A stretch of 64,000 nucleotides of DNA from Candidatus Woesebacteria bacterium (GCA_020060565.1 JAGVAE010000002.1:307270-371269); one strand, 5' to 3'; shown: positions 16,724 to 52,974, numbered from the stretch's first letter. A program made the numbers and translations. The notes: generated from the sequence alone by a model not told the origin.

Positions 16724-16728
16724 TAAGT

Positions 16729-18813: not shown

Positions 18814-18834
18814 ATGTGTATTGTATCATTAAGT

Positions 18835-28235: not shown

Positions 28236-29724
28236 ACAAAACTGGATTTATGTTATTGGGGGAATTGGGGTTTTGATTCTTTTTTCTTTGCGTTTTTGTA
28301 ATCTAACTCTTCTTCCTGTTTTTGCTGATGAAGCTATATATGTTCGTTGGGCACAGATAATGAAAGCTGAGGAAACTCTTCGTTTTCTTCCAATGTCTGA
28401 TGGCAAACAACCTTTTTATATGTGGGTTACAATTGCTTTTTTAAAGTTTATTAACGATCCCTTACTTGCAGGGCGTATCGTATCAGTACTATCAGGTCTA
28501 GGAACTTTAGCTGGAGTTTCTTTTCTTAGTTTTTTATTATTTAAATCTAAGAAAGCTGCCTTATTTGCTGCTATTGTCTATTCACTATCACCAATTACTT
28601 TCTTTTTTGACAGGATGGCATTGGTTGATTCAATGCTTGCAATGTTTGGAGTCTGGACATTTATCTTTGCATATCTTTCTATAACTCGTGAACGATTGGA
28701 CTGTGCGATGATAGCTGGTTTTTCATTGGGAGCGGCCTGGCTTACAAAGTCTCCAGCATTGTTTTTTGCTTTAATGCTTCCTACACTTTGGTTGTTTGCT
28801 AAGTCCAAAAGAAGTCTTATTAAAGTTATTCCGTTAACTTTTGTAACAGTTGTAATTGGTTATGGAATGTACAATATCCTGCGTCTTGGAACTAACTTTC
28901 ATATGATTGCACTCCGAAATTTGGACTATGTCTATCCTGTTAGCCATCTACTTTCTAGCCCCTTTGATCCTTTAAAGCCATTTTTGCTTCAAGTATGGCA
29001 GTGGTTAGTTATGATGGGACCTTGGCCGTTAATAGTATTAGGGGTTATTGGTTTGGTTGTTAATTTTAAGAAGAATTGGAAACAAAACACAGTTCTTCTA
29101 ATTTGGTTTATTGCTCCTATTGTTATTGAATCAGAATTTGCAAAAGTACTAACTGCCCGCTATATTCTTTTTACAATTCCGTTTTTGATTATAATTGCTT
29201 CATCTGCGTTTAATAGTTTATCAATTAGATGGTTACGAATTACAAGTTATGTAGTTTTAATTATATTTGTTGTACAGGCTTTTATTTTTGATTATTATCT
29301 TCTAACCAATCCTTCAAAAGCAAATCTGCCCAGGAGTGAAAGATCTGGCTATTTGGAAGAGTGGACCGCAGGACATGGTATTAAAGAAGTTTCAATTTAT
29401 ATCCAAGAATATCAACGAGCAAATCCTGGTAAAAAAATAATAGTGGGAACTGAAGGTTTTTTTGGGACACTACCTGATGCACTTCAAGCTTATTTGAATA
29501 GAGATAGAGAGATTACTGTCATTGGGGTTGGTCTTAATTTTACTGAAATTCCCATTTCCCTTAAAGAATCTTTTAAAGCGGGGAACACTACATTTTTAGT
29601 AATTAATGACAATAGATTTAATGGAAAAATTGAAGGAGAAGAACTAAAACTAATTTCAAGTTTTCCAAAGACCAAGCGACCTGATAGTTCTTATCAATCA
29701 CTACTATTATTTCAATTGAAATAA
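28219..29724 (+). CDS. ArnT/PMT_2-family GT-C glycosyltransferase (GT39/83-like).
   Basis: An N-terminal transmembrane helix, then 'LLPVFADEAIYVRWAQIM', the first-loop DE motif. About 12 transmembrane helices and a C-terminal soluble domain. Confidence 0.6.
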   Translation: MKKFFKQNWIYVIGGIGVLILFSLRFCNLTLLPVFADEAIYVRWAQIMKAEETLRFLPMSDGKQPFYMWVTIAFLKFINDPLLAGRIVSVLSGLGTLAGVSFLSFLLFKSKKAALFAAIVYSLSPITFFFDRMALVDSMLAMFGVWTFIFAYLSITRERLDCAMIAGFSLGAAWLTKSPALFFALMLPTLWLFAKSKRSLIKVIPLTFVTVVIGYGMYNILRLGTNFHMIALRNLDYVYPVSHLLSSPFDPLKPFLLQVWQWLVMMGPWPLIVLGVIGLVVNFKKNWKQNTVLLIWFIAPIVIESEFAKVLTARYILFTIPFLIIIASSAFNSLSIRWLRITSYVVLIIFVVQAFIFDYYLLTNPSKANLPRSERSGYLEEWTAGHGIKEVSIYIQEYQRANPGKKIIVGTEGFFGTLPDALQAYLNRDREITVIGVGLNFTEIPISLKESFKAGNTTFLVINDNRFNGKIEGEELKLISSFPKTKRPDSSYQSLLLFQLK

Positions 29725-29725
29725 A

Positions 29726-31495
29726 ATGAAATTATTATTAAAGATCATTATTGCAGCTTTAATCATTTTCATTATTTATCAATCACGTTGGATACTATCT
29801 TTCAAATACGAACCTGAATATTATGAAAACTTTTTTTATGAAAGCCAATACTCATATCCATCAAGTGCTAGGGGAATATCTGATGGTACTTTATATAAAT
29901 TCGTCGGTTATAGACTAACTCAAGGTGAAAATCCATTCAATATTAACTGGGAAATTCCTCCTTTTGGGAAAGTTTTATATGGGTATTCTTCAAGATTTCT
30001 GGGTAGTCCCTTTTGGTTTTCTTTAGCCTGTTTTTTTACAGCTTTGGTAGTTTTTTTCCTTATTCTTTCAAAGAATTTTAAAAATTATTTAATTCCATTT
30101 ATTGGTGTGGTGTTTTTGATTCTGATTCCACATTTTTCCAATCAGATTTCCGATACTATGCTGGATTTACCACTTACCCTTGCATATTTGGCTCATATGT
30201 TTTTCTTTTTTAATTATATTGACAAGAAAAAGATTATGAATTTAGTTGTAGCTGGTTCGCTGCTGGGAATTGCAAGTGCTATAAAACCACCAATATATGT
30301 GCCATTTATTTTGTTATTCGAACTTCTGATAGTTTATTTGAATGAGAAAAAGTTAAGAAGAGTTTTGATGCTTCCTATTTTTGTTTTTGCTGGTTATGTT
30401 TTAGGGTATTTTATTTATTTTGTCAGACATCCGAACCCTATTCCTTGGTTAAGACTTCATGAAAAGATTTATGATTTTTATTCAGGTTCAAAATTGGGAG
30501 TGAACTACACAGCTGCCATAAAAGAACTGTTTAATTTTGGTACTTGGGGATTTGTTTATGTGGCAGGACTAATTAGCTATTGTGTTTCCTGGACTAGATA
30601 TTTCAAAAACAAAAAAGATCTTAAGCTTTTGACAGCTATTTTGTTTTCAACGGTTTTTTTGGTAGTTAACTCTTTTATACCATTTTATCCAAGATATCTA
30701 TTGCCTCTCAGTTTTACCTTTATTTATTTAATTCTTTTTATGTTTAAGGATAAGCTTATAATTCCCCTTTTTATATGTGTTTTATCTTTTCCATTCTTTT
30801 ACAAAGCCTTTATCCCGTCTGATCCTGGAGGGGATGTGGGGGCGACTGCTAGATTTATTGAAACGAGAGCGGACAGAGAGCTTTATAGAGCAATTAATCC
30901 AAGTAAACGTAAAGAGATTTCGGAAAACGATTTTATCAATACACTTGAAAGCTTTAATAATACTTTGGGTACACGAAAAATACAGGTAACAATTGGAGAA
31001 GGTAATAAGCTTAATAACAAGTATTATTATGACCTTAATGTTAAATATGCCACAAGGTTTGGTGTGGTAGAGAACAATATACCTTTTGAATATGAGAATG
31101 TGCAAAATCAGTGGAAATTGAATTGGAATTGGGATTATCTTTATAAAGATTTCCTACCTGGATTGAATGTGGAATTTACCAAAAAACCATTACAACCATC
31201 CGAAATTTACGAAGTTTATATAATACCCAGACTAATGTTTGATTGGACTAAAAATTTAGACAATTTATCCAGATTAACAGGGGTATCTAGTCTTGTAATT
31301 AATCAAAAATTAACATCGGTAGTCCCCAACGGCTTTGAAAAGTTTGTTGGATACTTAAGTAAAGATGTTTCAGAAGTCGAGAGAGACGAAATAATGAAAG
31401 ACAATGGGGTAGTTAGGATTAAAAAAGTATACTTGGATCCGAAGACGGAATCTGAATCAAACTCGTTAATTTTAACTAAAACGTATTCCCAATAA
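29726..31495 (+). CDS. Polytopic membrane protein with about 10 transmembrane helices and a roughly 220-aa C-terminal extracytoplasmic domain of unknown fold.
   Basis: The hydrophobic N-terminal two-thirds is followed by a soluble C-terminus ('ETRADRELYRAINPSKRKEISEND...'). No known catalytic motif. Confidence 0.35.
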   Translation: MKLLLKIIIAALIIFIIYQSRWILSFKYEPEYYENFFYESQYSYPSSARGISDGTLYKFVGYRLTQGENPFNINWEIPPFGKVLYGYSSRFLGSPFWFSLACFFTALVVFFLILSKNFKNYLIPFIGVVFLILIPHFSNQISDTMLDLPLTLAYLAHMFFFFNYIDKKKIMNLVVAGSLLGIASAIKPPIYVPFILLFELLIVYLNEKKLRRVLMLPIFVFAGYVLGYFIYFVRHPNPIPWLRLHEKIYDFYSGSKLGVNYTAAIKELFNFGTWGFVYVAGLISYCVSWTRYFKNKKDLKLLTAILFSTVFLVVNSFIPFYPRYLLPLSFTFIYLILFMFKDKLIIPLFICVLSFPFFYKAFIPSDPGGDVGATARFIETRADRELYRAINPSKRKEISENDFINTLESFNNTLGTRKIQVTIGEGNKLNNKYYYDLNVKYATRFGVVENNIPFEYENVQNQWKLNWNWDYLYKDFLPGLNVEFTKKPLQPSEIYEVYIIPRLMFDWTKNLDNLSRLTGVSSLVINQKLTSVVPNGFEKFVGYLSKDVSEVERDEIMKDNGVVRIKKVYLDPKTESESNSLILTKTYSQ

Positions 31496-32155
31496 TACAA
31501 GTGCTCCGATAATAGCATCTTTAGCTTTTATTTTTTTGCCTTTCTCATAGCTCCTGGGTTTATATTTTATAGCAACTTCTTTTATTTGGATTTTTTTCTT
31601 AAGTAGTTTTGCGGTTATCTCTGCTTCTATTTCAAAACCGCTGGATTTAAGGTTTAAAGATTTAAAAATATTGGTGGGGATAAGTTTGTAGCATGTATAG
31701 CTGTCTGTTAATTTACTTCCAAATAAGACGTTACAAAAGGTTGTTATGGCAATATTTCCCAAATAGGTTCTAAGATATGCATGTTTACTTTTACCCATTA
31801 TTCTTGATCCATATACTACGCCACTTTTTGTGATTAGATTGGTCAACTTTGGAAATTCTGTAGGATCATACTCAAGGTCTGCATCTTGAATAATGGTGTA
31901 GTCACCCTTTACCATTTTTATTCCGGATCTTACGGCACCTCCTTTACCTAAATTTGTATTATGAGAAATGATTTTTAGTTTTTTGGCAAACCTTGCTGAC
32001 TTTTTAAGTTTTTGAAGAATTTGCAGTGTTTTATCAGTTGAACCATCATTAATAACAATTACTTCATAAATATCTTTTAAACCAATAACTTTATCCAAAA
32101 TTGTTTTTACGGTCGTTTCTTCATTAAGTACTGGGATAATTACCGAAAGTTTCAT
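31472..32155 (-). CDS. GT2 glycosyltransferase (DPM1/GtrB-like).
   Basis: 'LSVIIPVLNEETTV', 'VINDGSTDKT', 'QDADLEYDP'. It converges on the upstream gene with a 24-nt overlap. Confidence 0.8.
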   Translation of the reverse strand: MKLSVIIPVLNEETTVKTILDKVIGLKDIYEVIVINDGSTDKTLQILQKLKKSARFAKKLKIISHNTNLGKGGAVRSGIKMVKGDYTIIQDADLEYDPTEFPKLTNLITKSGVVYGSRIMGKSKHAYLRTYLGNIAITTFCNVLFGSKLTDSYTCYKLIPTNIFKSLNLKSSGFEIEAEITAKLLKKKIQIKEVAIKYKPRSYEKGKKIKAKDAIIGALVLLGIRFS

Positions 32156-35009: not shown

Positions 35010-36695
35010 ATGAAATCATTGAATAGAAAATGGTGGGTGTTTTTGTTTTTTGCTGTACTTCTGAGTGTGCCCTCATTTTTAAAAATAGTTAGGCCGGGAT
35101 TTTTTCCAATGCAAGATAGTATGCAGGTTTTTAGACTTTTTGAATTGGATAAATGTGTTAATGATTTACAACTTCCTTGTCGTTGGATTCCCGATGGGGG
35201 ATATGGCTATGGATATCCACAGTTTAACTTCTATGCTCCGCTTGTTTACTACCTGGGTGAGATCATTCATTTGGGTGGACTTCAATTTATAGATTCTATA
35301 AAGGTATTGTTCGCTTTAGGTTTTATCCTTTCTGCAGTAACAATGTTTATTCTTATAAAAGAACTATTTGGTGGTTTTTCTGCTTTTGTAGCCTCGGTAC
35401 TTTATATATATGTTCCATATCGTGCTCAACAGGTTTATGTAAGGGGGGCACTAAGTGAATTTTGGGCTAGTGTATTTTTCCCACTTATTTTGTGGGCAAT
35501 ATACAAACTAATAAAGAATGGAGATAAAAAGTACATTGTTTGGACCGCTTTATCTATAGCTGGCTTATTTTTAACTCACAATATCTTAGCGTATTTATTT
35601 ATCCCCATTATTCTTTTTTGGATTCTGTTTTGGGCATTTATAGAAAAAGGTATTAATGTAAAAAGACTGTCTCTGTCGCTTGGACTAGGTATTGGGCTTT
35701 CTGCCTTTTTTGTTTTACCAATGTTTTTTGAACGAGGATATGTTCACGTTGAAACTCTTTTAGGTGGTTACTTTGACTATAGACAGCATTTTGTAAACTT
35801 AAAACAATTGTTTTTCTCAAATCATTGGGGTTACGGGTCTTCAATGTTGGGGCCCGTTGATGATTTGGCTCTTTCTGTTGGAATTGTTCATTGGATAGTT
35901 GGGGCAATATCGCTAATTCTTGCCCTTATTATATTTAAGAAAAATAAAAAATTATCGTTGCTTGTTTTGGGAATGGGTGTGATTGAGGTGGTGGTCCTTT
36001 TTTTGATGCATGAAAGATCGTCATTTATTTGGTCGGCCATTCCTCCTCTTTCTTGGCTGCAATTTCCTTGGAGATTTTTGTCGTTAAGTGCTTTTATTCT
36101 TTCTTTTTTGTCAGGTTTTATATTTATGTATTTGGGAAAAGTAAGGTATATTTTCGGAATTTTAACTATTGTTGCAGTTTTTGTGCTCCACCTAAACTTT
36201 TTTGCACCCAAGGCTTGGCTTGATATAAAAGATAGCGATGAGTTAAGTGGTGAAGTATGGACAAAACAACTAACTGCAAGTATTTTTGACTATCTTCCAA
36301 TTTATGCAAAACTACCCCCAAACACAAAGGCGCCTGATGTACCTGAGATTTTGAGTGGAAGTGCTACTTTTGAAAATTATGTTAAGGGTAGTAATTTTCA
36401 AACTGGCAAACTCGATGTTAAAGAGAATGCCAGAATAAGGATTCCCTTGTTTGATTTTCCCGGTATGGTTGTAACTTTGGACAATAAGATCATTTCTCAT
36501 ATAAACAACGATTGCACAAATGAACCACATTGTTTAGGACTTATCACTATCGATGTTCCTGTTGGGGAATATTATTTTAAAGTTAAACTTAATAACACAC
36601 CAGTAAGAGTGATTGGTAATACGCTAAGCCTTTTTGCAATAATGGGAATAGTTTATGTTTCTATCAAAAAAAATGCTGAAATTTCTAAAAAATAA
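35010..36695 (+). CDS. YfhO-like GT-C membrane glycosyltransferase, paralogue 1 of 3 in tandem. ATG at 35010; the track has GTG at 34992.
   Basis: The N-terminal loop 'FFPMQDSMQVFRLFELDKCVNDLQLPCRWIPDGGYGYGYPQFNFY' and the C-terminal beta-domain 'YFKVKLNNTP' are shared with the next two genes. Confidence 0.45.
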   Translation: MKSLNRKWWVFLFFAVLLSVPSFLKIVRPGFFPMQDSMQVFRLFELDKCVNDLQLPCRWIPDGGYGYGYPQFNFYAPLVYYLGEIIHLGGLQFIDSIKVLFALGFILSAVTMFILIKELFGGFSAFVASVLYIYVPYRAQQVYVRGALSEFWASVFFPLILWAIYKLIKNGDKKYIVWTALSIAGLFLTHNILAYLFIPIILFWILFWAFIEKGINVKRLSLSLGLGIGLSAFFVLPMFFERGYVHVETLLGGYFDYRQHFVNLKQLFFSNHWGYGSSMLGPVDDLALSVGIVHWIVGAISLILALIIFKKNKKLSLLVLGMGVIEVVVLFLMHERSSFIWSAIPPLSWLQFPWRFLSLSAFILSFLSGFIFMYLGKVRYIFGILTIVAVFVLHLNFFAPKAWLDIKDSDELSGEVWTKQLTASIFDYLPIYAKLPPNTKAPDVPEILSGSATFENYVKGSNFQTGKLDVKENARIRIPLFDFPGMVVTLDNKIISHINNDCTNEPHCLGLITIDVPVGEYYFKVKLNNTPVRVIGNTLSLFAIMGIVYVSIKKNAEISKK

Positions 36696-38361
36696 TATTT
36701 ACTACATACTTGTGATTCTTTTGACTATTCCTGCCGTTTTTGCACTTTTTCATAATGGTTTTTATGGGGCATCAGATGATTTGCATATAGCTTGGCTTTT
36801 TGAGATGGATAAACTCTTTAAAATTGGACAGATTCCACCAAGGTTTGTGCCAGATCTGAGTTTTGGTTTTGGCTACCCTCTTTTTAATTTTGTATTTCCT
36901 TTCCCTTTCTATCTTGGGGAATTATTCCATACCATTGGCCTAAGTTTAGTAGATAGTGTGAAGGTGGTCTTTGGAATTTCTTTGGTTTTCTCGGGTTTGA
37001 TAATGTTTTTGTTTCTCAAGAATATAATCTCATCTTTACCCTTAAGTCTTTTAGGATCTTTAATCTATGTTTATGCTCCTTATAGATCAACAGATGTTTA
37101 TATAAGAGGAGCATTTGGCGAAGCTTTGTCTTTTGTTTTTTTACCCCTTCTTTTATATGGAATAATTAAGATTTTCAAGAATGTTAACAAAACAAATAGA
37201 GTTGATTGGAGAAATGCTGCCATCTCTGCTTTTGGACTGGGGATTTTGATACTTACTCACGACATAGTTTCATATATGTTTTTCCCTTTTTTCTTACTTC
37301 TTATACTTATGTTTTTTATCATTACAAACAGTTCGTCTCGCATTAGCTTTGTAATTAGTAGTGGAATTGGTATTGTGGGGGGGCTTCTTCTAAGTATTTA
37401 TTTCTGGTTTCCTGCAATCACTCAAAGCGGTCTTATGGCATTTAGTACTGTTTTTGATTTCAAAGATCACTATCCAACCATTAAGCAATTAATTACACCC
37501 TTCTTTGGTTATGGAGCTTCAGTCGCGGGGCCGCATGATGGTATGTCGTTTTTCTTGGGGGTGGGTAATATTGCTGCGATGGTTATTGGCTCAATAGTCG
37601 CTCTTTTCACTTGGAAAAAAATAGAGATCTTTCAAAAAATTGTAATTATTTGGGCGGTGATATCTTTTCTTTTGGCATTTTTCATGATGAATTATCGATC
37701 AACTTTTCTTTGGAACATTTTGCCCTTTTTGCCATATTTCCAATTTCCTTGGAGATTCTTAACCTTAACAACACTGGTGAGCTCTCTTTTTGTTATACCA
37801 ATCAGTATTATCAATAAAAAATATCTGATAGGAGCCCTGGTTACAGTTGGCTCTGTTTCATTAATTATTTTTAATCTGAATATTTTTAAGCCTCACGATT
37901 TTCTGGAAAGGCAAGACGAGTATTACTTAAATAGATATATTCCAATTCCTACAGCTAGTGACTCATATTTAGAAACACAAGAAGAATATCTAAGACTTCC
38001 CAAAAATACATTGGTAAGACCAGATAAAAACTACCCCCCACTTACTTCCGAAGCGAATTTTAATTACTCAGTTATTGAAACGAATGGAATTTATCTGAAA
38101 GCTAATGTGAGTGTTGGTAGTGGTAGTCAAGTTTCGTATAATAAGTATTACTTTCCTGGATGGAAAGCGTATGTTGATGGAAAAGAGGTAGAAATTAATA
38201 TTGGAAAACCTTTTGGACAAATATCAATAAATATTCCAAAAGGGGAGAGTATCGTTGAATTTGATTATAAAGAAACAACTCTTAATTTATTTCTAGATGG
38301 AATTTCCCTACTAACCTTAATAGCTTTGACGATGTTTCTTGTTAAGAAAAAGATCAGATGA
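36655..38361 (+). CDS. YfhO-like GT-C membrane glycosyltransferase, paralogue 2.
   Basis: 'HNGFYGASDDLHIAWLFEMDKLFKIGQIPPRFVPDLSFGFGYPLFNF' and a C-terminal 'YYFPGWKAYVDGKEVEINIGKPFGQISINIPKGESIVEFDY' (the YfhO-type C-terminal motif). It contains a G7 tract at 37377-37383. Confidence 0.45.
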   Translation: MFLSKKMLKFLKNNIYYILVILLTIPAVFALFHNGFYGASDDLHIAWLFEMDKLFKIGQIPPRFVPDLSFGFGYPLFNFVFPFPFYLGELFHTIGLSLVDSVKVVFGISLVFSGLIMFLFLKNIISSLPLSLLGSLIYVYAPYRSTDVYIRGAFGEALSFVFLPLLLYGIIKIFKNVNKTNRVDWRNAAISAFGLGILILTHDIVSYMFFPFFLLLILMFFIITNSSSRISFVISSGIGIVGGLLLSIYFWFPAITQSGLMAFSTVFDFKDHYPTIKQLITPFFGYGASVAGPHDGMSFFLGVGNIAAMVIGSIVALFTWKKIEIFQKIVIIWAVISFLLAFFMMNYRSTFLWNILPFLPYFQFPWRFLTLTTLVSSLFVIPISIINKKYLIGALVTVGSVSLIIFNLNIFKPHDFLERQDEYYLNRYIPIPTASDSYLETQEEYLRLPKNTLVRPDKNYPPLTSEANFNYSVIETNGIYLKANVSVGSGSQVSYNKYYFPGWKAYVDGKEVEINIGKPFGQISINIPKGESIVEFDYKETTLNLFLDGISLLTLIALTMFLVKKKIR

Positions 38362-40076
38362 AAAAAAATATAAAAAAAATAATAATACCTTTGTTGGTAG
38401 TTGTAGTTGGAGTCCTTGCGTCATTAACTCTTTTCAAACACAATTTTTATTTTAATATGCATGACGATCTTCAAATGATGCGTCAGCTGCAGCTGGAGAA
38501 ATGTTTTGCCGACGGACAAATACCGTGTCGCTGGGTACCTGATATGGGGTACGGTCATGGTTTTCCTCTTTTTAATTACTATCCGCAATTGCCCTATCTT
38601 TTCGGTCAAGTGTTCAGGCTTTTTGGCTTTGTTTTTAATGATGTGGCTAAGTTGACTTTTGCTTTGGGGATAATTGCGTCGGGAGTTGGCATGTATTTAA
38701 TGTCTAAGGAGTTTTTTGGAAAACTTGGTGGAATTTTGTCTGCGATTTTATATATTTGGGCACCATATCATTCTCTTGATATCTATGTACGAGGTGCAAT
38801 GAATGAATCCTGGGCTTTTGTTTGGTTTCCAATAATTCTTTGGGGGATATATAAGCTTGTTAAAGAGGGAAAAAATAAATACTTTATCATTCTTTCTCTT
38901 GCCATCTCCGCTCTTCTTTTGACTCACAACATTATGGTTATGATTTTTGTTCCCGTTGCAGCTCTTTGGACAATTGGATGGTTGGTGGCAGAAAAGAATT
39001 GGAAAATTATTATAAAACTTGGACTATCTGGGATCTTAAGCTTAGGCCTTTCTGCATTTTTCACCTTACCTGCAATTTTTGAACAAAAATATGTTCATAT
39101 AGATACGCTTGTAACGGGTTATTTCCAATATCATGCTCATTTTGCAACTATTTATCAACTTTTTATTTCCAGATTTTGGGGAGACGGACCTTCAGCCTTT
39201 GGGGTAAATGATGGTTTGGCGTTTCCTGTAGGACACGTGCATTGGATACTTGCAATTATAGTTACCATTCTTTTAGTAGTAAAAATCATCAAAACAAAAA
39301 AAATTATTAATTTTGATCTAATAGCTTTGTTTGCAATTTTAGTAGGGACAATGGGTGCATTTATGAGTCATCAAAGATCATTTTTTATATGGGAGAATTT
39401 ACCTGTTTTAGAATTTGTTCAGTTTCCATGGAGATTTTTGACCTTGAATGTATTGGGATATTCGATTGCAGGAGGAGCCTTGGTTTATTTGGTTAAGGAA
39501 ATTGGGTGGCTGAAAAAATCCATTTGGCAATATCTTTTGGTGGCGGCTATATCGCTTTTGGTAATAATAATTAATTGGAATTTCTTTAAACCTATTCACT
39601 CAGGACCCATGAGCGATGAGGAAAAATTCAGTGGTGAGGCTTGGAGAATTCAAACTCAGGCAGGTATTTTGGATTATTTACCAATTCAGGCTAAAGACGA
39701 CCCTCCATCGGCAAGAAATAGTCTGGTGGATGTTGTTGATGGGAAGGTCGAAGTTTCAAATGAGTCATATGGAACAGATTGGGCAAAGTTTGATTTAGAG
39801 ATTCAAAGCACAGAGGCAAAAATCAGAGTAAACATCTTTAATTATCCAATATGGAAAGCGTATGTTGATGGGGTAGAAACTAAAATATATGTGGATGACA
39901 ATGAGGAATGGGGCAGGATATATATTGATGTTTCCAGTGGAAATCGTGAAGTCTATTTAAAACTTAATAATACATCTCTTCGTAATGTAGCTAATGGAAT
40001 ATCGGTAGTTGCTTGGTTGGTTCTTATATCTTATTTTTTTTGGGGAAAGAAAATAATGAATGGTAGATTGACCTAA
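38358..40076 (+). CDS. YfhO-like GT-C membrane glycosyltransferase, paralogue 3.
   Basis: 'HNFYFNMHDDLQMMRQLQLEKCFADGQIPCRWVPDMGYGHGFPLFNYY' and a C-terminal 'NYPIWKAYVDGVETKIYVDDNEEWGRIYIDVSSGNREVYLK'. Confidence 0.45.
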   Translation: MKKNIKKIIIPLLVVVVGVLASLTLFKHNFYFNMHDDLQMMRQLQLEKCFADGQIPCRWVPDMGYGHGFPLFNYYPQLPYLFGQVFRLFGFVFNDVAKLTFALGIIASGVGMYLMSKEFFGKLGGILSAILYIWAPYHSLDIYVRGAMNESWAFVWFPIILWGIYKLVKEGKNKYFIILSLAISALLLTHNIMVMIFVPVAALWTIGWLVAEKNWKIIIKLGLSGILSLGLSAFFTLPAIFEQKYVHIDTLVTGYFQYHAHFATIYQLFISRFWGDGPSAFGVNDGLAFPVGHVHWILAIIVTILLVVKIIKTKKIINFDLIALFAILVGTMGAFMSHQRSFFIWENLPVLEFVQFPWRFLTLNVLGYSIAGGALVYLVKEIGWLKKSIWQYLLVAAISLLVIIINWNFFKPIHSGPMSDEEKFSGEAWRIQTQAGILDYLPIQAKDDPPSARNSLVDVVDGKVEVSNESYGTDWAKFDLEIQSTEAKIRVNIFNYPIWKAYVDGVETKIYVDDNEEWGRIYIDVSSGNREVYLKLNNTSLRNVANGISVVAWLVLISYFFWGKKIMNGRLT

Positions 40077-40085
40077 AAAAAGTAA

Positions 40086-40472
40086 ATGAAAATAATTGAG
40101 TTCGACCCGACTTATTTAAAAGACAATGGGCTTGTTGCGATTTATAATAAATCGGTTTTGTCGGGCAAAAACCTAGATTTTACTTTAGACGAAAGTGGTG
40201 TTATTGTTTTACCTCCAGATTCGGTTGGTGGCAATCATAAACATTTAAGAAGAGAGGCTTTTTATTCATTGGGAGATCTAAGGGTTTATTGGATAGATAA
40301 AAAAGGTAAAAAAATAAGTCAATCTATGGCTCCCATGAAGAATAAATATAAACTTTTCGTAGTCGAGCCTTACGAATCACATGTTATTAAAAATATATCT
40401 AATAAAGATCAGATTTTGGTAGAATATGCGTCTGTTCAGCAGTCTAATGTTGAACCTGTAAAAATTATATAG
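40086..40472 (+). CDS. Small hypothetical protein of 128 aa, possibly a cupin fold.
   Basis: The His/Glu spacing 'GGNHKHLRREAF ... YESHVIKN' is suggestive of a cupin metal site. Weak. Confidence 0.25.
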   Translation: MKIIEFDPTYLKDNGLVAIYNKSVLSGKNLDFTLDESGVIVLPPDSVGGNHKHLRREAFYSLGDLRVYWIDKKGKKISQSMAPMKNKYKLFVVEPYESHVIKNISNKDQILVEYASVQQSNVEPVKII

Positions 40473-40493: not shown

Positions 40494-41987
40494 GTGAAAG
40501 ACGTAACTGAAGAGCACTTGGATCCGACCACTGAGATATCCATAGAGAATGTAAAGGAACGTTCTGTACGTGGTGTAGTGTTTCTTACTGGGAGGACTTT
40601 CCTACTTCAAATAATTAGTTTGGTTGCTCAACTTTTTTTGTTTGCCTACTTAGGTAAATACGAATTTGGGGTTTTTGCCATAGTTAGTGCTATTATTAAT
40701 TTCCTTGTTTATTTTTCAGATATTGGGTTGGCTGCAGCGTTAATTCAAAAAAAAGAAAAGCCAACAGATGCAGATTTAAAAACAACCTTTTTAGTTCAAC
40801 AGTTTTTAGTAATGACCATTATTGGAGTAGTTATTGCGCTAACTCCCTTTTTTAGTCAAAGGTATTCACTTAATACTGATGGACAGATACTCTTGTATGC
40901 ACTTGCAGGATCTCTTTTTCTTTCTTCTCTAAAAAGCATTCCATCCGTTCTTCTTGAAAGAAAACTGGAGTTTATAAAACTTGTCTTTCCACAGATTTTG
41001 GAGCAGGTTGTATATAACGTTATTTTGGTTATCTTGGCTATGAAAGGTTTTGGTCTTGCAAGTTTTACCTTTGCGGTTATTGCAAGGGGAGTAATTGGAG
41101 TAGTGGCAATTTATACTCTTCAGCCTTGGATTCCTGGATTCGCATTCTCAAGAAAAACTCTCTCGGGTTTATTTAAATTTGGAATTCCCTATCAGATAAA
41201 TACTTTTTTGGCTACTTTTAAGGATGATGGAATAACATTGATATTGGGTAGTATTCTGGGTCCTAGTGGAGTCGGTATTCTTTCCTTTGCTCAAAAAATA
41301 GCCAGACTTCCTTTAACATTTTTTATGGATACGGTTACACGTGTAACTTTTCCTGCATTTTCCCGTATGCAGGATGCAAAAGAGGATCTCAGGCGTAGTG
41401 TAACCAGATCAATATTCTTTATTTGTTTACTGGTTTTTCCTAGCTTGGTAGGGATATGTATTTTAGCTCCGATTTTGGTTAATGTGGTTCCAAGGTACAA
41501 TCAATGGGTTCCAGCCCTGGTTCCAATAGTATTTATTTCAATTAATTTTGTTTTTGCAGCAGCCACAACTCAACTTACCAATCTATTAAATGCTATTGGA
41601 AAAATTAAAATAACCTTTTACTTAATGATTATGTGGACAGCTCTAACATGGGCTTTTGTTCCTTTCTTAGCCCTTAAGTTTGGTGTGGTTGGAGCATCAA
41701 TCGGATATTCCTTAGTTGGAACGTCGTCTGTTATCGCCATTATTATTGCCAAAAGATACGTTGATTTTTCAATAACAGATTCGATAATGAAACCATTAAT
41801 AGGATCTGTGGTTATGGGAGCGGTGCTTCTTATAATGAGGAGATATTTGCCAGTTAGTATTGTATCAATGGAAATATTAGCAGTTTCAGGGTTGGTTATT
41901 TATATTGTTTCAATGGTTTCAATGGTTGGTCTAAGTCTAATAGAAGATGCTAAAAAAAGCTTTAAAACTATTTTCTCAAAGAATTAA
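40494..41987 (+). CDS. Wzx-like oligosaccharide/polysaccharide flippase (MOP superfamily). GTG start.
   Basis: About 12-14 transmembrane helices, and 'LLQIISLVAQLFLFAYLGKYEFGVFAIVSAIINFLVYFSDIGLAAALIQ' typical of the Wzx/RfbX N-terminus. Confidence 0.6.
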   Translation: MKDVTEEHLDPTTEISIENVKERSVRGVVFLTGRTFLLQIISLVAQLFLFAYLGKYEFGVFAIVSAIINFLVYFSDIGLAAALIQKKEKPTDADLKTTFLVQQFLVMTIIGVVIALTPFFSQRYSLNTDGQILLYALAGSLFLSSLKSIPSVLLERKLEFIKLVFPQILEQVVYNVILVILAMKGFGLASFTFAVIARGVIGVVAIYTLQPWIPGFAFSRKTLSGLFKFGIPYQINTFLATFKDDGITLILGSILGPSGVGILSFAQKIARLPLTFFMDTVTRVTFPAFSRMQDAKEDLRRSVTRSIFFICLLVFPSLVGICILAPILVNVVPRYNQWVPALVPIVFISINFVFAAATTQLTNLLNAIGKIKITFYLMIMWTALTWAFVPFLALKFGVVGASIGYSLVGTSSVIAIIIAKRYVDFSITDSIMKPLIGSVVMGAVLLIMRRYLPVSIVSMEILAVSGLVIYIVSMVSMVGLSLIEDAKKSFKTIFSKN

Positions 41988-43605
41988 TCTAATAATTCTG
42001 ATTCTTCTGGGGTCTATCTCATGGTCTTGGACGATGGTTAAGAGTGGTTGGCAATATTCTTACGGTCTTGGTTTTTGGGGAGCAAATGGACACGATGGAG
42101 TTTGGCATATTGCGCTATCTGAAAGCTTAAGTAGGGGGCTACTAAATATGCCTGTTTTTGCTGGAGCATCTTTACAAAATTACCATATTGGCTTTGATTT
42201 GATTTTAGCTCTACTTCATAAAATTGCTTTTATCCCCACCTCTGTTTTGTATTTTCAGATTTTACCTCCCATATTTGCATTGTTAATAGGTCTATTAACT
42301 TATGTGTTTACACTGAGTTGGACGAAGTCCAGTCGAAGTGCATGGTGGTCTACCTTTTTTGTTTATTTTGGTGGCAGTTTTGGTTGGGTGATTGGAAAAG
42401 GGGAATCAGTATTTTGGTCGCAACAAGCCATTTCAACTCTTGTAAATCCCCCCCTTGCTCTTTCTTTAATATTTTTACTATTAGGTTTAATTCTTATTAA
42501 AAAACTTGATGAGAAATTTACTACAGTTAACTTTATTTTGAGCATATTGGTCTTTGGAACCCTAATTGAGATTAAAGCGTATGCAGGAATAATGGGTCTT
42601 GGGGCACTTTTTGTTTCATCTGTCTACTCTTTGTTTATTAGAAAGAATATAAATTTATTGAAAGTTTTTGTAGGCGCATTTCTTCTATCTTTAGTGTTAT
42701 ATCTGCCATTAAATAAGAATTCGACGGGTCTTTTGGTTTTATCTCCCTTTTGGTTTTTAGAAACAATGATGGGGACGAACGATAGAGTTGACTGGCAAAA
42801 GTTTTATTCAGCAATGATGACGTACAAATCAGGAGGAGTTTTTGTAAAAGGGATACTTGCTTACGGAGTAGCTTTTGTTGTTTTTATTCTGGGAAATTTT
42901 GGAACAAGAATTATATTTCTTTTTAGAAAAATTAAAATTGATAAAATAAACATTTTTATTTATTCAATAATTGGAGCCGGGGTAGCAATTCCAATGCTTT
43001 TTCTTCAAAAAGGAACTCCTTGGAATACAATACAATTTTTTTACTATTCCTTGTTCTTTTCTTCAATTTTAGCAGGAATTGTTTTATCCAAAGTAAAAAG
43101 TAAAATAATTATATTGGTTGTTGTTTTGGCAACAATCCCCACAACTTTTATTACTTTAAAAGATGTTTTCGTCCCATCTCGTCCTCCCGCAATGCTTCCA
43201 CTAGATGAGCTTGCCGCACTTTCATTTTTATCAAAACAACCTGACGGAGTCGTTTTGACTAAACCTTTTGATTTCAATCGCGCAAAAGCTGCTGAAAATA
43301 ACCCCCCCAGGCCACTATATTTATATACTTCAACCGCTTATGTATCTGCGTTTTCGAAACAACAAACATTCTTAGAGGACGAGATTAACATAGATATTAC
43401 TGGATATAGTTGGAAAACCCGAAAGGATCAAGTTTTGGAATGGTATGAAAGTAAAGATGTATCAATGAGATCTAATTTTCTTATCGACAATGACATAAAA
43501 TATATTTATTGGTTGAAAGAAGATGATACCATGTTTTATTTGAATAAATTATCACTTACTAATATTTTTGAGAACAATTTGGTTATTGTTTATAGAGTCG
43601 AATAA
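41947..43605 (+). CDS. Polytopic membrane protein of 552 aa; candidate Wzy-like polymerase/ligase or another GT-C.
   Basis: Multi-pass protein directly downstream of the flippase. It carries two C7 tracts (42448-42454 and 43302-43308). No diagnostic motif. Confidence 0.3.
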   Translation: MLKKALKLFSQRINLIILILLGSISWSWTMVKSGWQYSYGLGFWGANGHDGVWHIALSESLSRGLLNMPVFAGASLQNYHIGFDLILALLHKIAFIPTSVLYFQILPPIFALLIGLLTYVFTLSWTKSSRSAWWSTFFVYFGGSFGWVIGKGESVFWSQQAISTLVNPPLALSLIFLLLGLILIKKLDEKFTTVNFILSILVFGTLIEIKAYAGIMGLGALFVSSVYSLFIRKNINLLKVFVGAFLLSLVLYLPLNKNSTGLLVLSPFWFLETMMGTNDRVDWQKFYSAMMTYKSGGVFVKGILAYGVAFVVFILGNFGTRIIFLFRKIKIDKINIFIYSIIGAGVAIPMLFLQKGTPWNTIQFFYYSLFFSSILAGIVLSKVKSKIIILVVVLATIPTTFITLKDVFVPSRPPAMLPLDELAALSFLSKQPDGVVLTKPFDFNRAKAAENNPPRPLYLYTSTAYVSAFSKQQTFLEDEINIDITGYSWKTRKDQVLEWYESKDVSMRSNFLIDNDIKYIYWLKEDDTMFYLNKLSLTNIFENNLVIVYRVE

Positions 43606-43632: not shown

Positions 43633-44532
43633 ATGGCATCAAAACTCTCAGTTGTTGTCAACACTTATAATGAAGCTAAGATTTTGCCGCAGGCTTTAAC
43701 CTCTGTCCGCGATTTGGTGGATGAGATAGTTATAATTGATATGGAGTCCTCTGATAATATTCATGAAATCGCTAAAAAGTTTGATGCTAAAGTTTTTTCC
43801 CATAAACACCTTGAATATGTTGAACCTGCAAGAAATTTTGGAACAAGTAAAGCTACGGGGGATTGGGTATTGGTTTTAGATCCTGATGAGGAAGTTTCGG
43901 ACACACTTGCCACAAAAATTAAAGAAATAATTAAAAATAACGAAGCTGATTATTGTAGAATCCCCAGAAAAAATATTATTTTTAACCACTGGATTGAGCA
44001 TGCTCACTGGTGGCCTGACTATAACATCAGGCTTTTTAGGAAAGGAGCGGTTTCGTGGAGTGAGGTAATTCATGCAGTACCTTTCACTCAAGGCAAGGGT
44101 ATTGATTTTGATGCAAAGGAAGACTTGGCAATAATACACCATCACTACGATTCGCTTGAGGGTTATGTGGAACGTATGAATAGATATACTTCAATTCAAG
44201 CTGACAGAAAAGTAAAAAGTGGATATAAATTTAGTTGGCGTGACATCTTAACAAAACCAACAAATGAATTTTTAAGTAGATATTTTGGAGATAAAGGCTA
44301 TAAAGATGGTATATACGGTTTAGCTCTATCACTTTTGCAGGGTTTTTCTGAACTTGTATTGTATTTAAAAATTTGGCAAGCAGATAAGTTTAAAGACGAG
44401 AAAGTTAGTTTAACTGAAATAATTAATGAAATGAGAGAAAAAGAACGTGATTTACATTACTGGCAGGGAGATTCAATGTATAAAGAATCGGGTGACATCA
44501 GAGACCGCGTTAGACGTAAGCTCCGTATTTAA
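43633..44532 (+). CDS. GT2 glycosyltransferase, paralogue family D (with 45457 and 59628).
   Basis: 'LSVVVNTYNEAKIL' and 'LDPDEE'. The C-terminal block 'HAHWWPDYNIRLFRKGAVSWS' is shared with the paralogues. Confidence 0.7.
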   Translation: MASKLSVVVNTYNEAKILPQALTSVRDLVDEIVIIDMESSDNIHEIAKKFDAKVFSHKHLEYVEPARNFGTSKATGDWVLVLDPDEEVSDTLATKIKEIIKNNEADYCRIPRKNIIFNHWIEHAHWWPDYNIRLFRKGAVSWSEVIHAVPFTQGKGIDFDAKEDLAIIHHHYDSLEGYVERMNRYTSIQADRKVKSGYKFSWRDILTKPTNEFLSRYFGDKGYKDGIYGLALSLLQGFSELVLYLKIWQADKFKDEKVSLTEIINEMREKERDLHYWQGDSMYKESGDIRDRVRRKLRI

Positions 44533-44533
44533 T

Positions 44534-45472
44534 ATGACCAAAAAAACTCCGAGTGTCTCAATAATAATTTTAACCACTAACGCGCTTGCCATGACCAAAG
44601 AACAGCTTTTGGATGTTGCCAAACTTGATGTTGATGGAATAAAGGCTGAATGTTTGGTTGTCGATAATGGAAGTGGAGATGGAACAGAAGATGCAATAAA
44701 GAACTACAAACTTCCCAATATGGAATATAAGTTTATTCAAAGTGGAGCCAATTTGGGGTTTGCGGGTGGAAATAATGTTGGAATAAAAGATGCGCTAAAA
44801 CGCGGCTTTGACTACATCCTTCTTATGAATAACGACCTTGTGTTGCCCAGGGATATTGTTACTAAATTGGTTGGATACATGGAAGAAGGTCCAGAAGTGG
44901 GAATAGCTTCACCTAAAATGTATTTTGCCAAAGGTTATGAATTCCACAAAGACAGGTATAAAGAGAGTGATAAAGGAAAAGTGTTTTGGTATGCTGGGGG
45001 AATCATAGACCGTGTTAATGTCTATACTTCCCATCGTGGTGTAGATGAAGTTGACCGAGGTCAATATGACAAAACTGAAGAAACAGATGTTGCCAATGGG
45101 GCGTGTGTAATAATTAGACGGGAAGTTTTTAAAAAGATTGGACTACTTGATCATTCATTTTTTTTGTATTGGGAAGATGCTGATTTTTCAGAACGAGCCA
45201 AACGCGCAGGTTATAAAATTATGTATTTCCCAGGAACTTGTATGTGGCACAAAGTTTCTGCTTCAACGGGCGGGTCTGGAAGCCCCACGAATGATTACTT
45301 TTTAACCAGAAATAGATTCTATTACTCCTTGCGATACTCTTCTTTGAGAACAAAATTTGCAGTTTTAAGAGATACTATTAGACTTATATTTATGGGACGT
45401 ACTTGGCAAAGATGGGGTGCTATCGATGCACTTTTAGGAAGAAAGGGGATGGGTCAATGGGCCAAAAGGTGA
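44534..45472 (+). CDS. GT2 glycosyltransferase (rhamnosyl/glucosyltransferase-like). Start at ATG 44534.
   Basis: 'VSIIILTTN', 'VVDNGSGDGT', 'LLMNNDLVL', 'YWEDADFSERA'. Confidence 0.75.
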   Translation: MTKKTPSVSIIILTTNALAMTKEQLLDVAKLDVDGIKAECLVVDNGSGDGTEDAIKNYKLPNMEYKFIQSGANLGFAGGNNVGIKDALKRGFDYILLMNNDLVLPRDIVTKLVGYMEEGPEVGIASPKMYFAKGYEFHKDRYKESDKGKVFWYAGGIIDRVNVYTSHRGVDEVDRGQYDKTEETDVANGACVIIRREVFKKIGLLDHSFFLYWEDADFSERAKRAGYKIMYFPGTCMWHKVSASTGGSGSPTNDYFLTRNRFYYSLRYSSLRTKFAVLRDTIRLIFMGRTWQRWGAIDALLGRKGMGQWAKR

Positions 45473-46185
45473 CACTATCAGTAATAATTCTTCAAGGTGG
45501 CAATTATGACAAAGAGTTGTTTGTTAATTGCCTGGATTCTGTTTCTTTTGCAGATGAAATTATAAAAGTAGAAACTGACAATTTAAAAGGTTCTTTCTCA
45601 GACTTCAGAAATAGTGGAGCAAAGATGGCAAAAGGCGAATGGCTATTGTATGTAGATACTGATGAGATTGTTACATCTGAACTCAAAAAGGAAGTAGAAA
45701 AAACGATTCAGAACAATGATTTTTGCGCTTATGCAATTCCAAGACGCAATATTGTTTTGGGACGGGAAATGAAACACTGTGGACTATGGCCAGATTATGT
45801 TTTAAGACTCATTAAGAAAGACTGTTTAGTTAGCTGGGAGGGTAAGTTGCATGAACAACCCAAAATTAATGGCAAGACGGGATATTTAAAGGAACCATTG
45901 ATTCATAAGAAACATGATGATATTGCTGGGATGGTAGAAAAGACGAATAAATGGTCAGAGGTTGAAGGAAGGCTTATGTTCGAAGCTCATCATCCTCCAA
46001 TGAATTTTTTTAGATTTGTTTCTGCTGGACTTCGTGAGTTTTGGCAAAGAATGATTCTCCAAACGGCTTTTTTAGACGGAACGGAAGGAACCATTTATGG
46101 GCTTTATCAAGTTTATAGTAGACTAATCTCATACTCAAAACTTTGGGAGATGCAGATACAAAAAAATGAAGGCGGCAATATATAA
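45457..46185 (+). CDS. GT2 glycosyltransferase, family D paralogue. Start at ATG 45457.
   Basis: 'LSVIILQGGN', 'VDTDEIV', 'KHCGLWPDYVLRLIKKDCLVSW'. Confidence 0.65.
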   Translation: MGQKVTLSVIILQGGNYDKELFVNCLDSVSFADEIIKVETDNLKGSFSDFRNSGAKMAKGEWLLYVDTDEIVTSELKKEVEKTIQNNDFCAYAIPRRNIVLGREMKHCGLWPDYVLRLIKKDCLVSWEGKLHEQPKINGKTGYLKEPLIHKKHDDIAGMVEKTNKWSEVEGRLMFEAHHPPMNFFRFVSAGLREFWQRMILQTAFLDGTEGTIYGLYQVYSRLISYSKLWEMQIQKNEGGNI

Positions 46186-47194
46186 TCCATATTTAGATAC
46201 ATTAGGAGGAGGGGAACGCTATACACTTTCCTTTGTCAAGGCATTAATTGATAAAAGGTATCAGGTAGATATTGAGTGGAAATCCAAAGGAATCGTTAAA
46301 CTTCTTGAAGACCGTTTTGGAATGAACCTTGTGGGGGTCAATGTAGTTGAGAATGTAAACAGGGGAGACGGATATGATCTTTGTTTTTGGGTCAGTGATG
46401 GAAGTATTCCAGCTCTTCGTGCTAGAAAAAACCTTCTCCATTTTCAAATTCCACTCCATGATGTAAACGGAAAGTCCTTGATGAATAAAATGAAACTTTT
46501 TAGAGTAAGTAAAGTAATATGTAACTCCTTTTTTACAAAAAAAATTATCGATAGGGAGTATGGGGTAAACAGTGTTGTTATTTATCCTCCTATTGATACA
46601 AAATCGATAAAACCAAAAAGAAAAGAAAATATAATTTTGTATGTTGGAAGATTTTCCAAACTAACACAAAGTAAAAGGCAAGATGTTTTAGTTCATGCAT
46701 TCAAGAAACTTATTTCTGCAGGGGGTTTATCTGATTGGAAATTAATTTTAGTAGGAGGAATCGAGGTTGGGGTAGATAGTTATTTTGAAGAAATCAAAAA
46801 AATATCATCTGAGCTTCCAATTGAGATAATCACAAGCCCTGATTTTAAGACACTAAAAGAATTATATGGAAGAGCAAAACTATTTTGGTCTGCTTCGGGG
46901 TTTGGAGAGGACGAAGCCAAAAATCCTCAAAAAGTCGAGCATTTTGGTATGACCGTTGTTGAGGCAATGACTGCGGGTGTAGTACCTGTTGTATACAATG
47001 CGGGTGGACATAAAGAAATTATTAGAGATAGTAAAAATGGATTTTTATGGACAAAAGAAAACGACCTTATAAAAATTACCTCCAAAATCATTAAAGATAA
47101 GTCTCTATTAAGAAGGATTTCTGCAAATGCAAAAAGTGATTCAGAATTTTATTCAAAAGAAAAATTTGAAGAGGAAATATTTAAGTTGATATGA
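46166..47194 (+). CDS. GT4 (group 1) glycosyltransferase.
   Basis: 'EHFGMTVVEAMTAGVVPVVYNAGGHKEII', the E-x7-E GT4 motif region. Confidence 0.8.
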   Translation: MKAAIYNPYLDTLGGGERYTLSFVKALIDKRYQVDIEWKSKGIVKLLEDRFGMNLVGVNVVENVNRGDGYDLCFWVSDGSIPALRARKNLLHFQIPLHDVNGKSLMNKMKLFRVSKVICNSFFTKKIIDREYGVNSVVIYPPIDTKSIKPKRKENIILYVGRFSKLTQSKRQDVLVHAFKKLISAGGLSDWKLILVGGIEVGVDSYFEEIKKISSELPIEIITSPDFKTLKELYGRAKLFWSASGFGEDEAKNPQKVEHFGMTVVEAMTAGVVPVVYNAGGHKEIIRDSKNGFLWTKENDLIKITSKIIKDKSLLRRISANAKSDSEFYSKEKFEEEIFKLI

Positions 47195-52921: not shown

Positions 52922-52974
52922 CAAGCTTTGCTAAGTAATGTCTCTTAGCCTTCTTGATGGTACAATTATTGTAG

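Follow-up and report, generated by a model that had tools for sequence, protein, structure and literature searches.

YfhO of Bacillus subtilis and Staphylococcus aureus adds N-acetylglucosamine to lipoteichoic acid (LTA), and Lmo1079 of Listeria monocytogenes adds the same sugar to wall teichoic acid (WTA). In the standard scheme for such reactions, a glycosyltransferase of the GT-A type makes a polyprenyl-phosphate-linked sugar inside the cell, the lipid-linked sugar is flipped across the membrane, and a GT-C enzyme transfers it on the outside (PMC8035078). The acceptors used by the YfhO family (PF09586) include LTA, WTA, and proteins (PMC8035078, PMC12041528). Here, we describe three adjacent genes for the GT-C paralogues P1, P2, and P3 at positions 35,010 to 40,076 of a 64,000-nucleotide stretch of DNA from Candidatus Woesebacteria bacterium (GCA_020060565.1 JAGVAE010000002.1:307270-371269); the stretch as a whole is referred to as the window. 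An initial annotation of this DNA had described the three as YfhO-like proteins, with a function known only for teichoic acids, and had named Listeria GtlA, beside Bacillus YfhO, for structural comparison. Neither of these last two points could be upheld, since PgtC2 of Streptococcus pyogenes and PgfM1/M2 of Streptococcus mutans are YfhO-family protein O-glycosyltransferases (PMC12041528), and since GtlA of L. monocytogenes is a cytoplasmic GT-A enzyme whose GT-C partners are GtlB and YfhO (PMC8035078).

P1, P2, and P3 probably act outside the cell, attaching single sugars to a glycan or glycoprotein of the cell surface. They belong to a routine, uncharacterized enzyme type and not to a new kind of system: GT-A/GT-C glycosylation pairs are already known, relatives of the three proteins are automatically annotated as "YfhO family" or "PTPS-related," and nothing is overturned by our analysis. 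New here are the old three-clade structure of the family, its conserved gene cluster, a GT2 fusion that predicts the donor, and a neighboring protein with an STT3 fold.

Three paralogous GT-C proteins related to YfhO and PF10131

Related loci were taken from a set of 534 GTDB species-representative loci carrying the family signature, the 80 best of which were considered; all gene-content counts refer to 57 related loci that are 19 kb or longer. The proteins compared in this section are encoded as follows.

35010..36695 (+): P1, GT-C paralogue of the "P1 clade," 561 aa; 567 aa from an alternative in-frame GTG at 34992
36655..38361 (+): P2, GT-C paralogue of the "P2 clade," most divergent of the three, 568 aa
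38358..40076 (+): P3, GT-C paralogue, core orthologue of a conserved Microgenomates cluster, 572 aa
47191..49524 (+): P4, bona fide YfhO-family GT-C protein, 777 aa, YfhO score of 82.5 bits; optional member, at the same position in 11/57 loci

The three are tandem paralogues of about 570 aa, as initially annotated: three co-directional open reading frames (ORFs) encode proteins of 561 to 572 aa that are 30 to 39% identical over their full length by BLASTP (P1-P3, 39%, E value of 8e-121; P1-P2, 30%, E value of 8e-71; P2-P3, 30%, E value of 3e-64). The P2 gene starts within the end of the P1 gene, the start of the P3 gene overlaps the P2 stop by 4 nt, and a PMT_2 gene adjoins P1 on its upstream side, overlapping it only if the GTG start at 34992 is used. 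The overlaps between P1, P2, and P3 and the adjoining PMT_2 gene are consistent with one operon.

The whole-protein Pfam cutoffs are 28.5 bits for YfhO and 26.4 bits for PF10131 ("PTPS_related," of the GT-C/PMT clan). P1 scores 29.9 bits with PF10131, above the cutoff, and has no YfhO match. Across the family of P1 to P3, PF10131 is matched by 24 of 28 members and the YfhO hidden Markov model by 21 of 28 (both at an E value of <0.01; best YfhO E value, 1.5e-12), so that similarity to both profiles is present. The alignments take in only part of each model, namely, positions ~64 to 390 of the 835 positions of YfhO and the first ~300 to 320 of the 621 positions of PF10131. When the family profile of P1 to P3 was compared by hhalign with a profile of P4 orthologues from related genomes, which are true YfhO proteins, the probability was 98.8% (E value of 5.6e-17) over 147 columns in the transmembrane (TM) core. 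The C termini of P2 and P4 are 39% identical over 70 aa (E value of 1e-7). NCBIfam has no model for P1, P2, or P3, and nothing meaningful was found in sequence searches of the PDB with either the P1-to-P3 family profiles or the P4 profile. The relationship to YfhO and PF10131 proposed in the initial annotation thus stands insofar as the three proteins are GT-C relatives of these families, as seen in the PF10131 score of P1 and the hhalign result, but none of the three passes the YfhO cutoff. P1 to P3 are a short (~570 aa) GT-C subfamily between PF10131 and YfhO. The fourth member of the initial annotation, P4, is a true Pfam YfhO protein with the ending described for it; its C terminus aligns to the end of the YfhO model and also matches the PgfM1 and PgfM2 models.

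The fold agrees with this placement. An AlphaFold2 model of P3 built with 28 sequences had a mean predicted local distance difference test (pLDDT) score of 84 and a predicted template modeling (pTM) score of 0.88, and the top 31 PDB matches of this model in Foldseek were all GT-C enzymes (E values down to 3.7e-5; TM scores of 0.36 to 0.46), among them STT3, AglB, PglB, DPY19, ArnT, PMT (Pmt4), EmbB, and AftD. The C-terminal ~120 residues of the model form a beta sandwich (aa ~414 to 536), followed by a TM helix (aa 540 to 567); searched alone, the sandwich matches the beta-sandwich side domains of GH30 and GH5 enzymes. Hydropathy, the positive-inside rule, and the helices of the model together predict an N-in topology with 11 TM helices and a C-terminal anchor. 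The N terminus carries 3 to 4 K/R residues and no D/E, and short K/R-rich loops alternate with conserved loops. The short loops are predicted to lie inside, while the HDD, PCRWVPD, RGAxxE, THN, and QFPWRFL motifs and the beta domain are predicted to lie outside.

Two motifs had been singled out in the initial annotation, a shared loop near the N terminus and a YfhO-type PGWKAYVDG sequence near the C terminus. Their positions are as follows.

35109..35240 (+): P1, predicted first extracytoplasmic loop motif MQDSMQVFRLFELDKCVNDLQLPCRWIPDGGYGYGYPQFNFYAP, aa 34 to 77, with the invariant Asp right after the first TM helix (TM1)
36769..36900 (+): P2, predicted first extracytoplasmic loop motif ASDDLHIAWLFEMDKLFKIGQIPPRFVPDLSFGFGYPLFNFVFP, aa 39 to 82
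38457..38588 (+): P3, predicted first extracytoplasmic loop motif MHDDLQMMRQLQLEKCFADGQIPCRWVPDMGYGHGFPLFNYYPQ, aa 34 to 77, with D36 as candidate catalytic base
36459..36485 (+): P1, C-terminal motif PGMVVTLDN, diverged, matching PGWKAYVDG at 3/9 positions
38155..38181 (+): P2, C-terminal motif PGWKAYVDG, exact, aa 501 to 509
39846..39872 (+): P3, C-terminal motif PIWKAYVDG, matching at 8/9 positions; beta strand at aa 499 to 503 in the model

The N-terminal loop motif was found in P1, P2, and P3, and the HDD...CRWVPD loop is predicted to be extracytoplasmic, in agreement with the initial annotation, rather than cytoplasmic. In P3 numbering, D36, K48, Q54, P56, R58, P61, D62, G68, P70, and N73 are invariant in 28 family sequences, and D37 is conserved in at least 90% of them, the site reading QDS in P1 and SDD in P2. 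In GT-C enzymes, an acidic residue near TM1 is conserved in the first loop on the extracytoplasmic side; D36 of P3 corresponds to it, and we take this residue as the candidate catalytic Asp. Because the YfhO and PF10131 models begin to align only at residue ~72 to 78 of the paralogues, the loop motif (MHDDLQMMRQLE..KCF..QIPCRWVPDMGYGxGFPLFN) lies N-terminal to both Pfam alignments and is a subfamily signature outside both described families. The C-terminal motif was assigned too widely: the exact PGWKAYVDG that all were said to carry is found, among P1 to P4, in P2 and P4 only (aa 710 to 718 of P4), P3 has PIWKAYVDG, P1 has PGMVVTLDN, and across 28 family members only P-x-W-...-D is conserved. 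The possibility that P1 to P3 are pseudoenzymes was considered and rejected, as the family-invariant residues are all retained.

In summary of the comparison with YfhO, P1 to P3 share with that family the GT-C fold, the predicted N-in topology, in which TM1 is immediately followed by an Asp, a homologous TM core, a C-terminal beta domain with the P-x-W-K-x-Y-x-D-G motif and a terminal TM anchor, and gene pairing with a GT2 of the polyprenyl-phosphate-sugar-synthase type. They differ from it in their length (about 570 aa with 11+1 predicted TM helices, versus ~780 to 880 aa), in the first-loop motif HDDLQMMRQLE...CRWVPDMGYGxGFPLFN, which is specific to the P1-to-P3 family, and in having no teichoic acid genes nearby.

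Conserved gene cluster and proposed sugar donor

P3, but not P1 or P2, belongs to a conserved core cluster with the order GT2, PMT_2, P3, Wzx, STT3-fold protein, three GT2s, and GT4. A P3-type gene is present in 57/57 loci, and conservation of the cluster spans Woese-, Blackburn-, Shapiro-, Ames-, and Daviesbacteria. The members in the window, with one inserted GT2, are as follows.

26231..26977 (+): GT2, 248 aa, probable polyprenyl-phosphate-sugar synthase, Pfam GT2; 57/57 loci
28219..29724 (+): PMT_2-type GT-C, directly upstream of P3 in most genomes; 52/57 loci
31472..32155 (-): GT2, 227 aa, polyprenyl-phosphate-sugar-synthase type, lineage-specific insertion; best match, AglJ/PgfS
40494..41987 (+): Wzx/MOP-type flippase, Polysacc_synt_3 score of 180.7 bits; 51/57 loci
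41947..43605 (+): 552-aa STT3-fold membrane protein; 50/57 loci
43633..44532 (+): GT2, cytoplasmic, core; 50/57 loci
44447..45472 (+): GT2, rhamnosyltransferase-like, cytoplasmic, core; 45/57 loci
45403..46185 (+): GT2, cytoplasmic, core; 45/57 loci
46166..47194 (+): GT4, cytoplasmic, core; 37/57 loci

Six lineage-specific insertions separate the core PMT_2 gene from P3 in the window, namely, the genes at 29726, 31472 (-), 32168, and 33397, P1, and P2. A copy of the 31472 GT2 (46 to 50% identical) follows the P genes in three loci (L057, L065, and L077), and a GT2 like that at 49502 is found in 20/57 loci.

The donor is suggested by gene fusions. In four loci (L053, L055, L058, and L061), a GT2 like that at 26231 is fused in frame to the N terminus of the P3-type protein; these ORFs of 803 to 822 aa start about 750 nt upstream of position 10001, their GT2 part being 40 to 46% identical (E values of 1e-57 to 1e-64) and their GT-C part 42 to 46% identical. 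Independently, three library proteins (P0250, P0254, and P0259) contain Glycos_transf_2 and PF10131 in one chain, and the fusions range overall from 803 to 832 aa. Such a fusion fits the predicted topology, because the N terminus would be cytoplasmic and followed by TM1. The best PDB relatives of the 26231 GT2 are the dolichyl-phosphate mannose synthase (DPMS) of Pyrococcus furiosus (5mlz), GtrB of Synechocystis (5ekp), and ArnC (9bhc), each of them a polyprenyl-phosphate glycosyltransferase, and its best NCBIfam matches, all below the cutoff, are PgfS, a haloarchaeal dolichyl-phosphate (Dol-P)-hexose transferase, and ArnC. Taken together, the GT2 fusion and the relatedness of the GT2 to DPMS, GtrB, and ArnC support a polyprenyl-phosphate sugar as the donor of the P3-type GT-C proteins. 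The fusion thereby gives a testable donor hypothesis for a PF10131-like family without a characterized member.

We consider it likely that P1 to P3 are extracytoplasmic GT-C enzymes that receive a polyprenyl-phosphate sugar from a GT2 and use a glycan or glycoprotein of the conserved cluster as the acceptor. In the cytoplasm, a small GT2 (that at 26231..26977 or one of its paralogues) would transfer a monosaccharide from a nucleotide sugar to polyprenyl phosphate, the lipid-linked sugar would be flipped across the membrane, and each GT-C protein would pass the sugar to a surface acceptor, with the invariant Asp just after TM1 (D36 in P3) as the base. The acceptor would be a glycan or glycoprotein-linked glycan built by the P3 cluster (Wzx, the STT3-fold protein, three GT2s, and one GT4). 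Since P1, P2, and P3 represent three old, distinct orthologous clades, the most likely difference among them lies in the sugar, the linkage, or the position on the acceptor.

Several observations weigh against this reading. P2 alone has no Pfam or NCBIfam match, and P3 scores 25.1 bits with YfhO and 20.8 bits with PF10131, both below the cutoff; thus, although P1 is above the PF10131 cutoff and GT2 fusion proteins also match that family, P2 and P3 are without a match or below the threshold. The function of PF10131 is itself stated to be unknown, with no characterized member (PMC7801869). In DPMS, GtrB, and ArnC, the C terminus carries TM helices, which are missing from the unfused GT2. Among the window ORFs, no stand-alone GtrA-type flippase was found, the GtrA_DPMS_TM domain occurring only as part of the fusion at 18706..19992, nor was an initiating phosphoglycosyltransferase found in the window. 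The choice of acceptor, furthermore, is based on synteny.

The locus resembles the CsbB/GtcA/YfhO, GtrB/GtrA/GtrX, ArnC/ArnEF/ArnT, and GacI/GacL systems, in which a cytoplasmic DPMS/GtrB/ArnC-like GT2 is likewise encoded beside, or fused to, a GT-C enzyme, and it shares with such multicomponent systems the presence of several GT2/GT-C pairs in one island. In contrast to them, the window has no separate GtrA-family flippase gene, the conserved neighbor being a Wzx/MOP protein, and the unfused GT2 has no TM helices.

The 552-aa protein encoded at 41947..43605 has no Pfam or NCBIfam match. It has more than 1,343 relatives; among those listed, none has a Pfam match, and all with a named source are called "hypothetical protein." Its AlphaFold2 model (pLDDT of 81.9) matches the catalytic subunits of oligosaccharyltransferases (OSTs; STT3/AglB/PglB) in Foldseek with E values of 7e-8 to 1e-4 and TM scores of 0.48 to 0.54, and the C-terminal globular domain matches AglB-S2 (3vu0). 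A profile search gave no sequence match to any PDB chain, and no WWDYG motif was seen in the family consensus. Because the gene lies directly after Wzx, the protein is a candidate en bloc transferase. Membership of the 552-aa protein in the family of P1 to P3 was rejected (hhalign probability of 22%).

From ~18700 to 64000, the window is one dense glycosylation island with nearly all genes on the + strand. It encodes 16 polytopic proteins of the GT-C type (eleven PMT_2-like proteins, one of them subthreshold; P1 to P3; P4; and the 552-aa protein), together with twelve GT2s, two GT4s, and one Wzx/MOP flippase. Further features in and around the island are as follows.

13917..18209 (+): rmlA/B/C/D-like dTDP-rhamnose set, upstream of the island
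18706..19992 (+): GT2 fused to a GtrA/DPMS TM domain, 428 aa, architecture of an archaeal-type Dol-P-mannose synthase
20259..21416 (-): 385-aa polytopic membrane protein without a Pfam match
40086..40472 (+): 128-aa protein without a family match, between P3 and Wzx
51200..59620: run of five PMT_2 genes

Within the dTDP-rhamnose set, the RmlB-like ORF at 14804..16723 encodes 639 aa, of which only residues 4 to 299 form the dehydratase domain, leaving ~340 C-terminal residues without a family match. The 385-aa protein gave a weak NCBIfam match to [quoted passage not shown] The 128-aa protein is kept in the two closest relatives of the window, L081 (12983..13369) and L082 (8545..8931), and is absent from 57 other loci; in both L081 and L082, an extra 427-aa gene without a family match directly follows P3. 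Neither tRNA genes nor Rfam matches were detected in the window, which leaves no RNA marker by which to place it taxonomically.

Proposed acceptors and rival roles

The acceptor, which the initial annotation considered potentially a novel surface polymer, is most likely the glycan, or glycoprotein-linked glycan, of the conserved cluster, to which the gene context points. A somewhat unlikely alternative is that P1 to P3 are direct protein O-glycosyltransferases, which, in the manner of PMT, PgtC2, and PgfM1/M2, would transfer sugars from polyprenyl phosphate to Ser/Thr in disordered, S/T/P-rich regions of secreted or membrane-anchored proteins rather than to a glycan already in place. Streptococcal YfhO-family enzymes do so (PMC12041528), the Pgf models are matched both by the C terminus of P4 (PgfM1/PgfM2) and by the partner GT2 (best match, PgfS), and a plausible substrate, a secreted protein with an LTD (lamin-tail) domain, is encoded in the window at 10396..11199 (+). 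However, these Pgf matches are far below the cutoffs (33 to 75 versus 500 to 1,500 bits), P3 lies within a Wzx/GT2/GT4 cluster that suggests an oligosaccharide context, and the three genes are not genetically linked to any particular substrate gene. In the LTD-domain protein, a linker of ~50 aa is rich in Pro, Thr, and Ser, with S+T reaching 53% over the best stretch of 30 aa, and the C terminus has a TM anchor.

It is rather unlikely that P1 to P3 add side-chain decorations to a rhamnose-containing cell wall polysaccharide that would replace teichoic acids, comparable to GacI/GacL of S. pyogenes and CsdA-F of Lactococcus lactis. GT-A/GT-C pairs are known to decorate rhamnans in Firmicutes (PMC8035078), and for Patescibacteria, wall polysaccharides containing rhamnose have been suggested (PMC11809585); the window itself contains the rmlA/B/C/D-like genes and the rhamnosyltransferase-like GT2 (44447..45472). 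In contrast, no rhamnan-type ABC exporter and no full LCP ligase were identified in the window, which has only a LytR_C domain protein, and the rml genes lie 20 kb away, outside the conserved core cluster. Literature searches, moreover, turned up no chemical data on the cell walls of the candidate phyla radiation (CPR).

It is improbable that P1 to P3 do not transfer monosaccharides at all and instead polymerize or ligate glycans or serve, catalytically inactive, as scaffold or carbohydrate-binding subunits within a GT-C complex. The best structural matches of P3 do include the OSTs STT3, AglB, and PglB, and the 16 GT-C genes side by side would allow hetero-oligomers like Pmt1-Pmt2 and EmbA-EmbB. 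Nevertheless, the in-frame fusion to a GT2 of the polyprenyl-phosphate-monosaccharide-synthase type argues for a monosaccharide donor, the family-invariant acidic and basic residues are kept in P1 to P3, none of which looks dead, and a better OST-like candidate (41947..43605) is present in the same cluster.

A teichoic acid is an unlikely acceptor, and the role of a teichoic acid glycosyltransferase like YfhO of B. subtilis and S. aureus (on LTA) or Listeria Lmo1079 (on WTA) is very improbable and the least supported among the acceptor ideas: homology to YfhO does extend over the TM core and the C-terminal domain and a GT2 partner is present, as with CsbB, but the YfhO family uses several acceptor classes, the subfamily is distant from Firmicutes YfhO (subthreshold and ~250 aa shorter), and when the 58 sense ORFs with 90 aa or more in the 64-kb window were scanned with Pfam, no LtaS (sulfatase), TagF/TarL (Glyphos_transf), or TagO-type domain was detected.

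Transfer of single sugars to the glycan of the conserved cluster, the reading preferred here, could form part of a larger scheme. We tentatively suggest, as a doubtful proposal, that P1 to P3 are the outside decorating enzymes of a conserved pathway for surface glycosylation, apparently present throughout the Microgenomates and similar to protein glycosylation in archaea and eukaryotes. In the first step of such a pathway, DPM1-like GT2s and further GT2 and GT4 enzymes would build a lipid-linked oligosaccharide, which the Wzx-type protein would flip in the second. The previously unrecognized STT3-fold enzyme (41947..43605) would then move the oligosaccharide en bloc to a protein or to the wall, and in the fourth step, the PMT_2-type and YfhO-like GT-C proteins, including P1 to P3, would diversify the glycan from polyprenyl-phosphate monosaccharides.

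In Haloferax volcanii, surface proteins are glycosylated by the Agl system, with AglJ/G/I/E, AglB, and AglD/AglR/AglS. Counterparts of its components are encoded in the window: GT2s resembling DPM1, whose best NCBIfam matches include AglJ and a haloarchaeal Dol-P-hexose transferase; a flippase like Wzx; an enzyme with the STT3 fold; and additional GT-C proteins, by which a last sugar could be attached on the outside. The differences are that the STT3-fold protein is not matched by sequence to STT3, AglB, or PglB, that a WWDYG motif was not seen in it, and that all matches to Agl models are far below the cutoff. Literature searches on YfhO with Patescibacteria and on oligosaccharyltransferase with CPR found nothing relevant.

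CPR bacteria, or Patescibacteria, are thought to live attached to other cells, and to our knowledge the chemistry of their envelopes is essentially unknown. If the proposed pathway is correct, the island with its 16 GT-C proteins would be a locus for surface-glycan diversification, relevant to host attachment of these epibiotic bacteria. In practical terms, the genes for the 26231 GT2, P3, Wzx, and the STT3-fold protein, together with the GT2/GT4 genes, make up a defined set that could be reconstituted in a heterologous host.

Distribution and history of the family

A word-indexed search returned more than 2,183 relatives, with the top matches all of ~570 aa, and an exhaustive profile search found 17,184 clusters at 50% identity with an E value of ≤1e-3 and 5,670 with an E value of ≤1e-30. 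The few named sources among the top matches are all Microgenomates, Woesebacteria, or "Patescibacteria group," and the 80 best loci belong to Woese-, Blackburn-, Shapiro-, Davies-, or Amesbacteria or to unnamed Patescibacteria; the short subfamily is apparently restricted to the Microgenomates. The host had been taken for a CPR bacterium in the initial annotation, and the relatives indeed point to one of Microgenomates/Woesebacteria type. Labels vary among the relatives ("PTPS-related," "GT39," and "YfhO family"), some being called "6-pyruvoyl-tetrahydropterin synthase-related protein" by NCBI.

Most genomes have a single copy, which is always of the P3 type, while P1-type copies were found in 9/57 and P2-type copies in 3/57 of the long loci. 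A neighbor-joining tree resolved three clades, each consisting of one window gene with Woesebacteria and Shapirobacteria-type orthologues. P1-clade orthologues are present in L001, L003, L015, L057, L060, L076, and L078, and P2-clade orthologues are present in L001, L003, L015, L057, L076, and L078; each of the three clades takes in the Woesebacteria loci L001, L003, and L015 and the Shapirobacteria-type loci L057, L076, and L078. This structure indicates that the triplet is ancient and maintained, not a recent local amplification. The same P1-P2-P3 order is found in the 76%-identical relative L081. A recent tandem duplication was considered and rejected, since the orthologues of each copy are closer to one another than the paralogues are and fall into the three clades.

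In L007, the GT2, PMT_2, and Wzx proteins are 83%, 68%, and 82% identical to those of the window, versus only 51% for the P3-type gene, and L011 and L032 have the same pattern of conserved cluster neighbors and a diverged P3-type gene. This pattern suggests that the genes for GT-C proteins acting outside the cell diverge, or are exchanged, much faster than their neighbors.

Many records (loci L003, L004, L006, L008, L010, and others) are titled "uncultured Gammaproteobacteria bacterium," and their gene cluster is the Microgenomates-type one, in unchanged order; the taxonomy in these titles looks like a placeholder or an error. Four long library proteins, P0261 (3,329 aa), P0291 (1,670 aa), P0244 (1,093 aa), and P0247 (1,116 aa), have two to six matches each to the family profile and represent either genuine fusions of several GT-C proteins or tandem genes that gene calling has joined. 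P0261 combines YfhO, PF10131, and PMT_2 regions in one chain.

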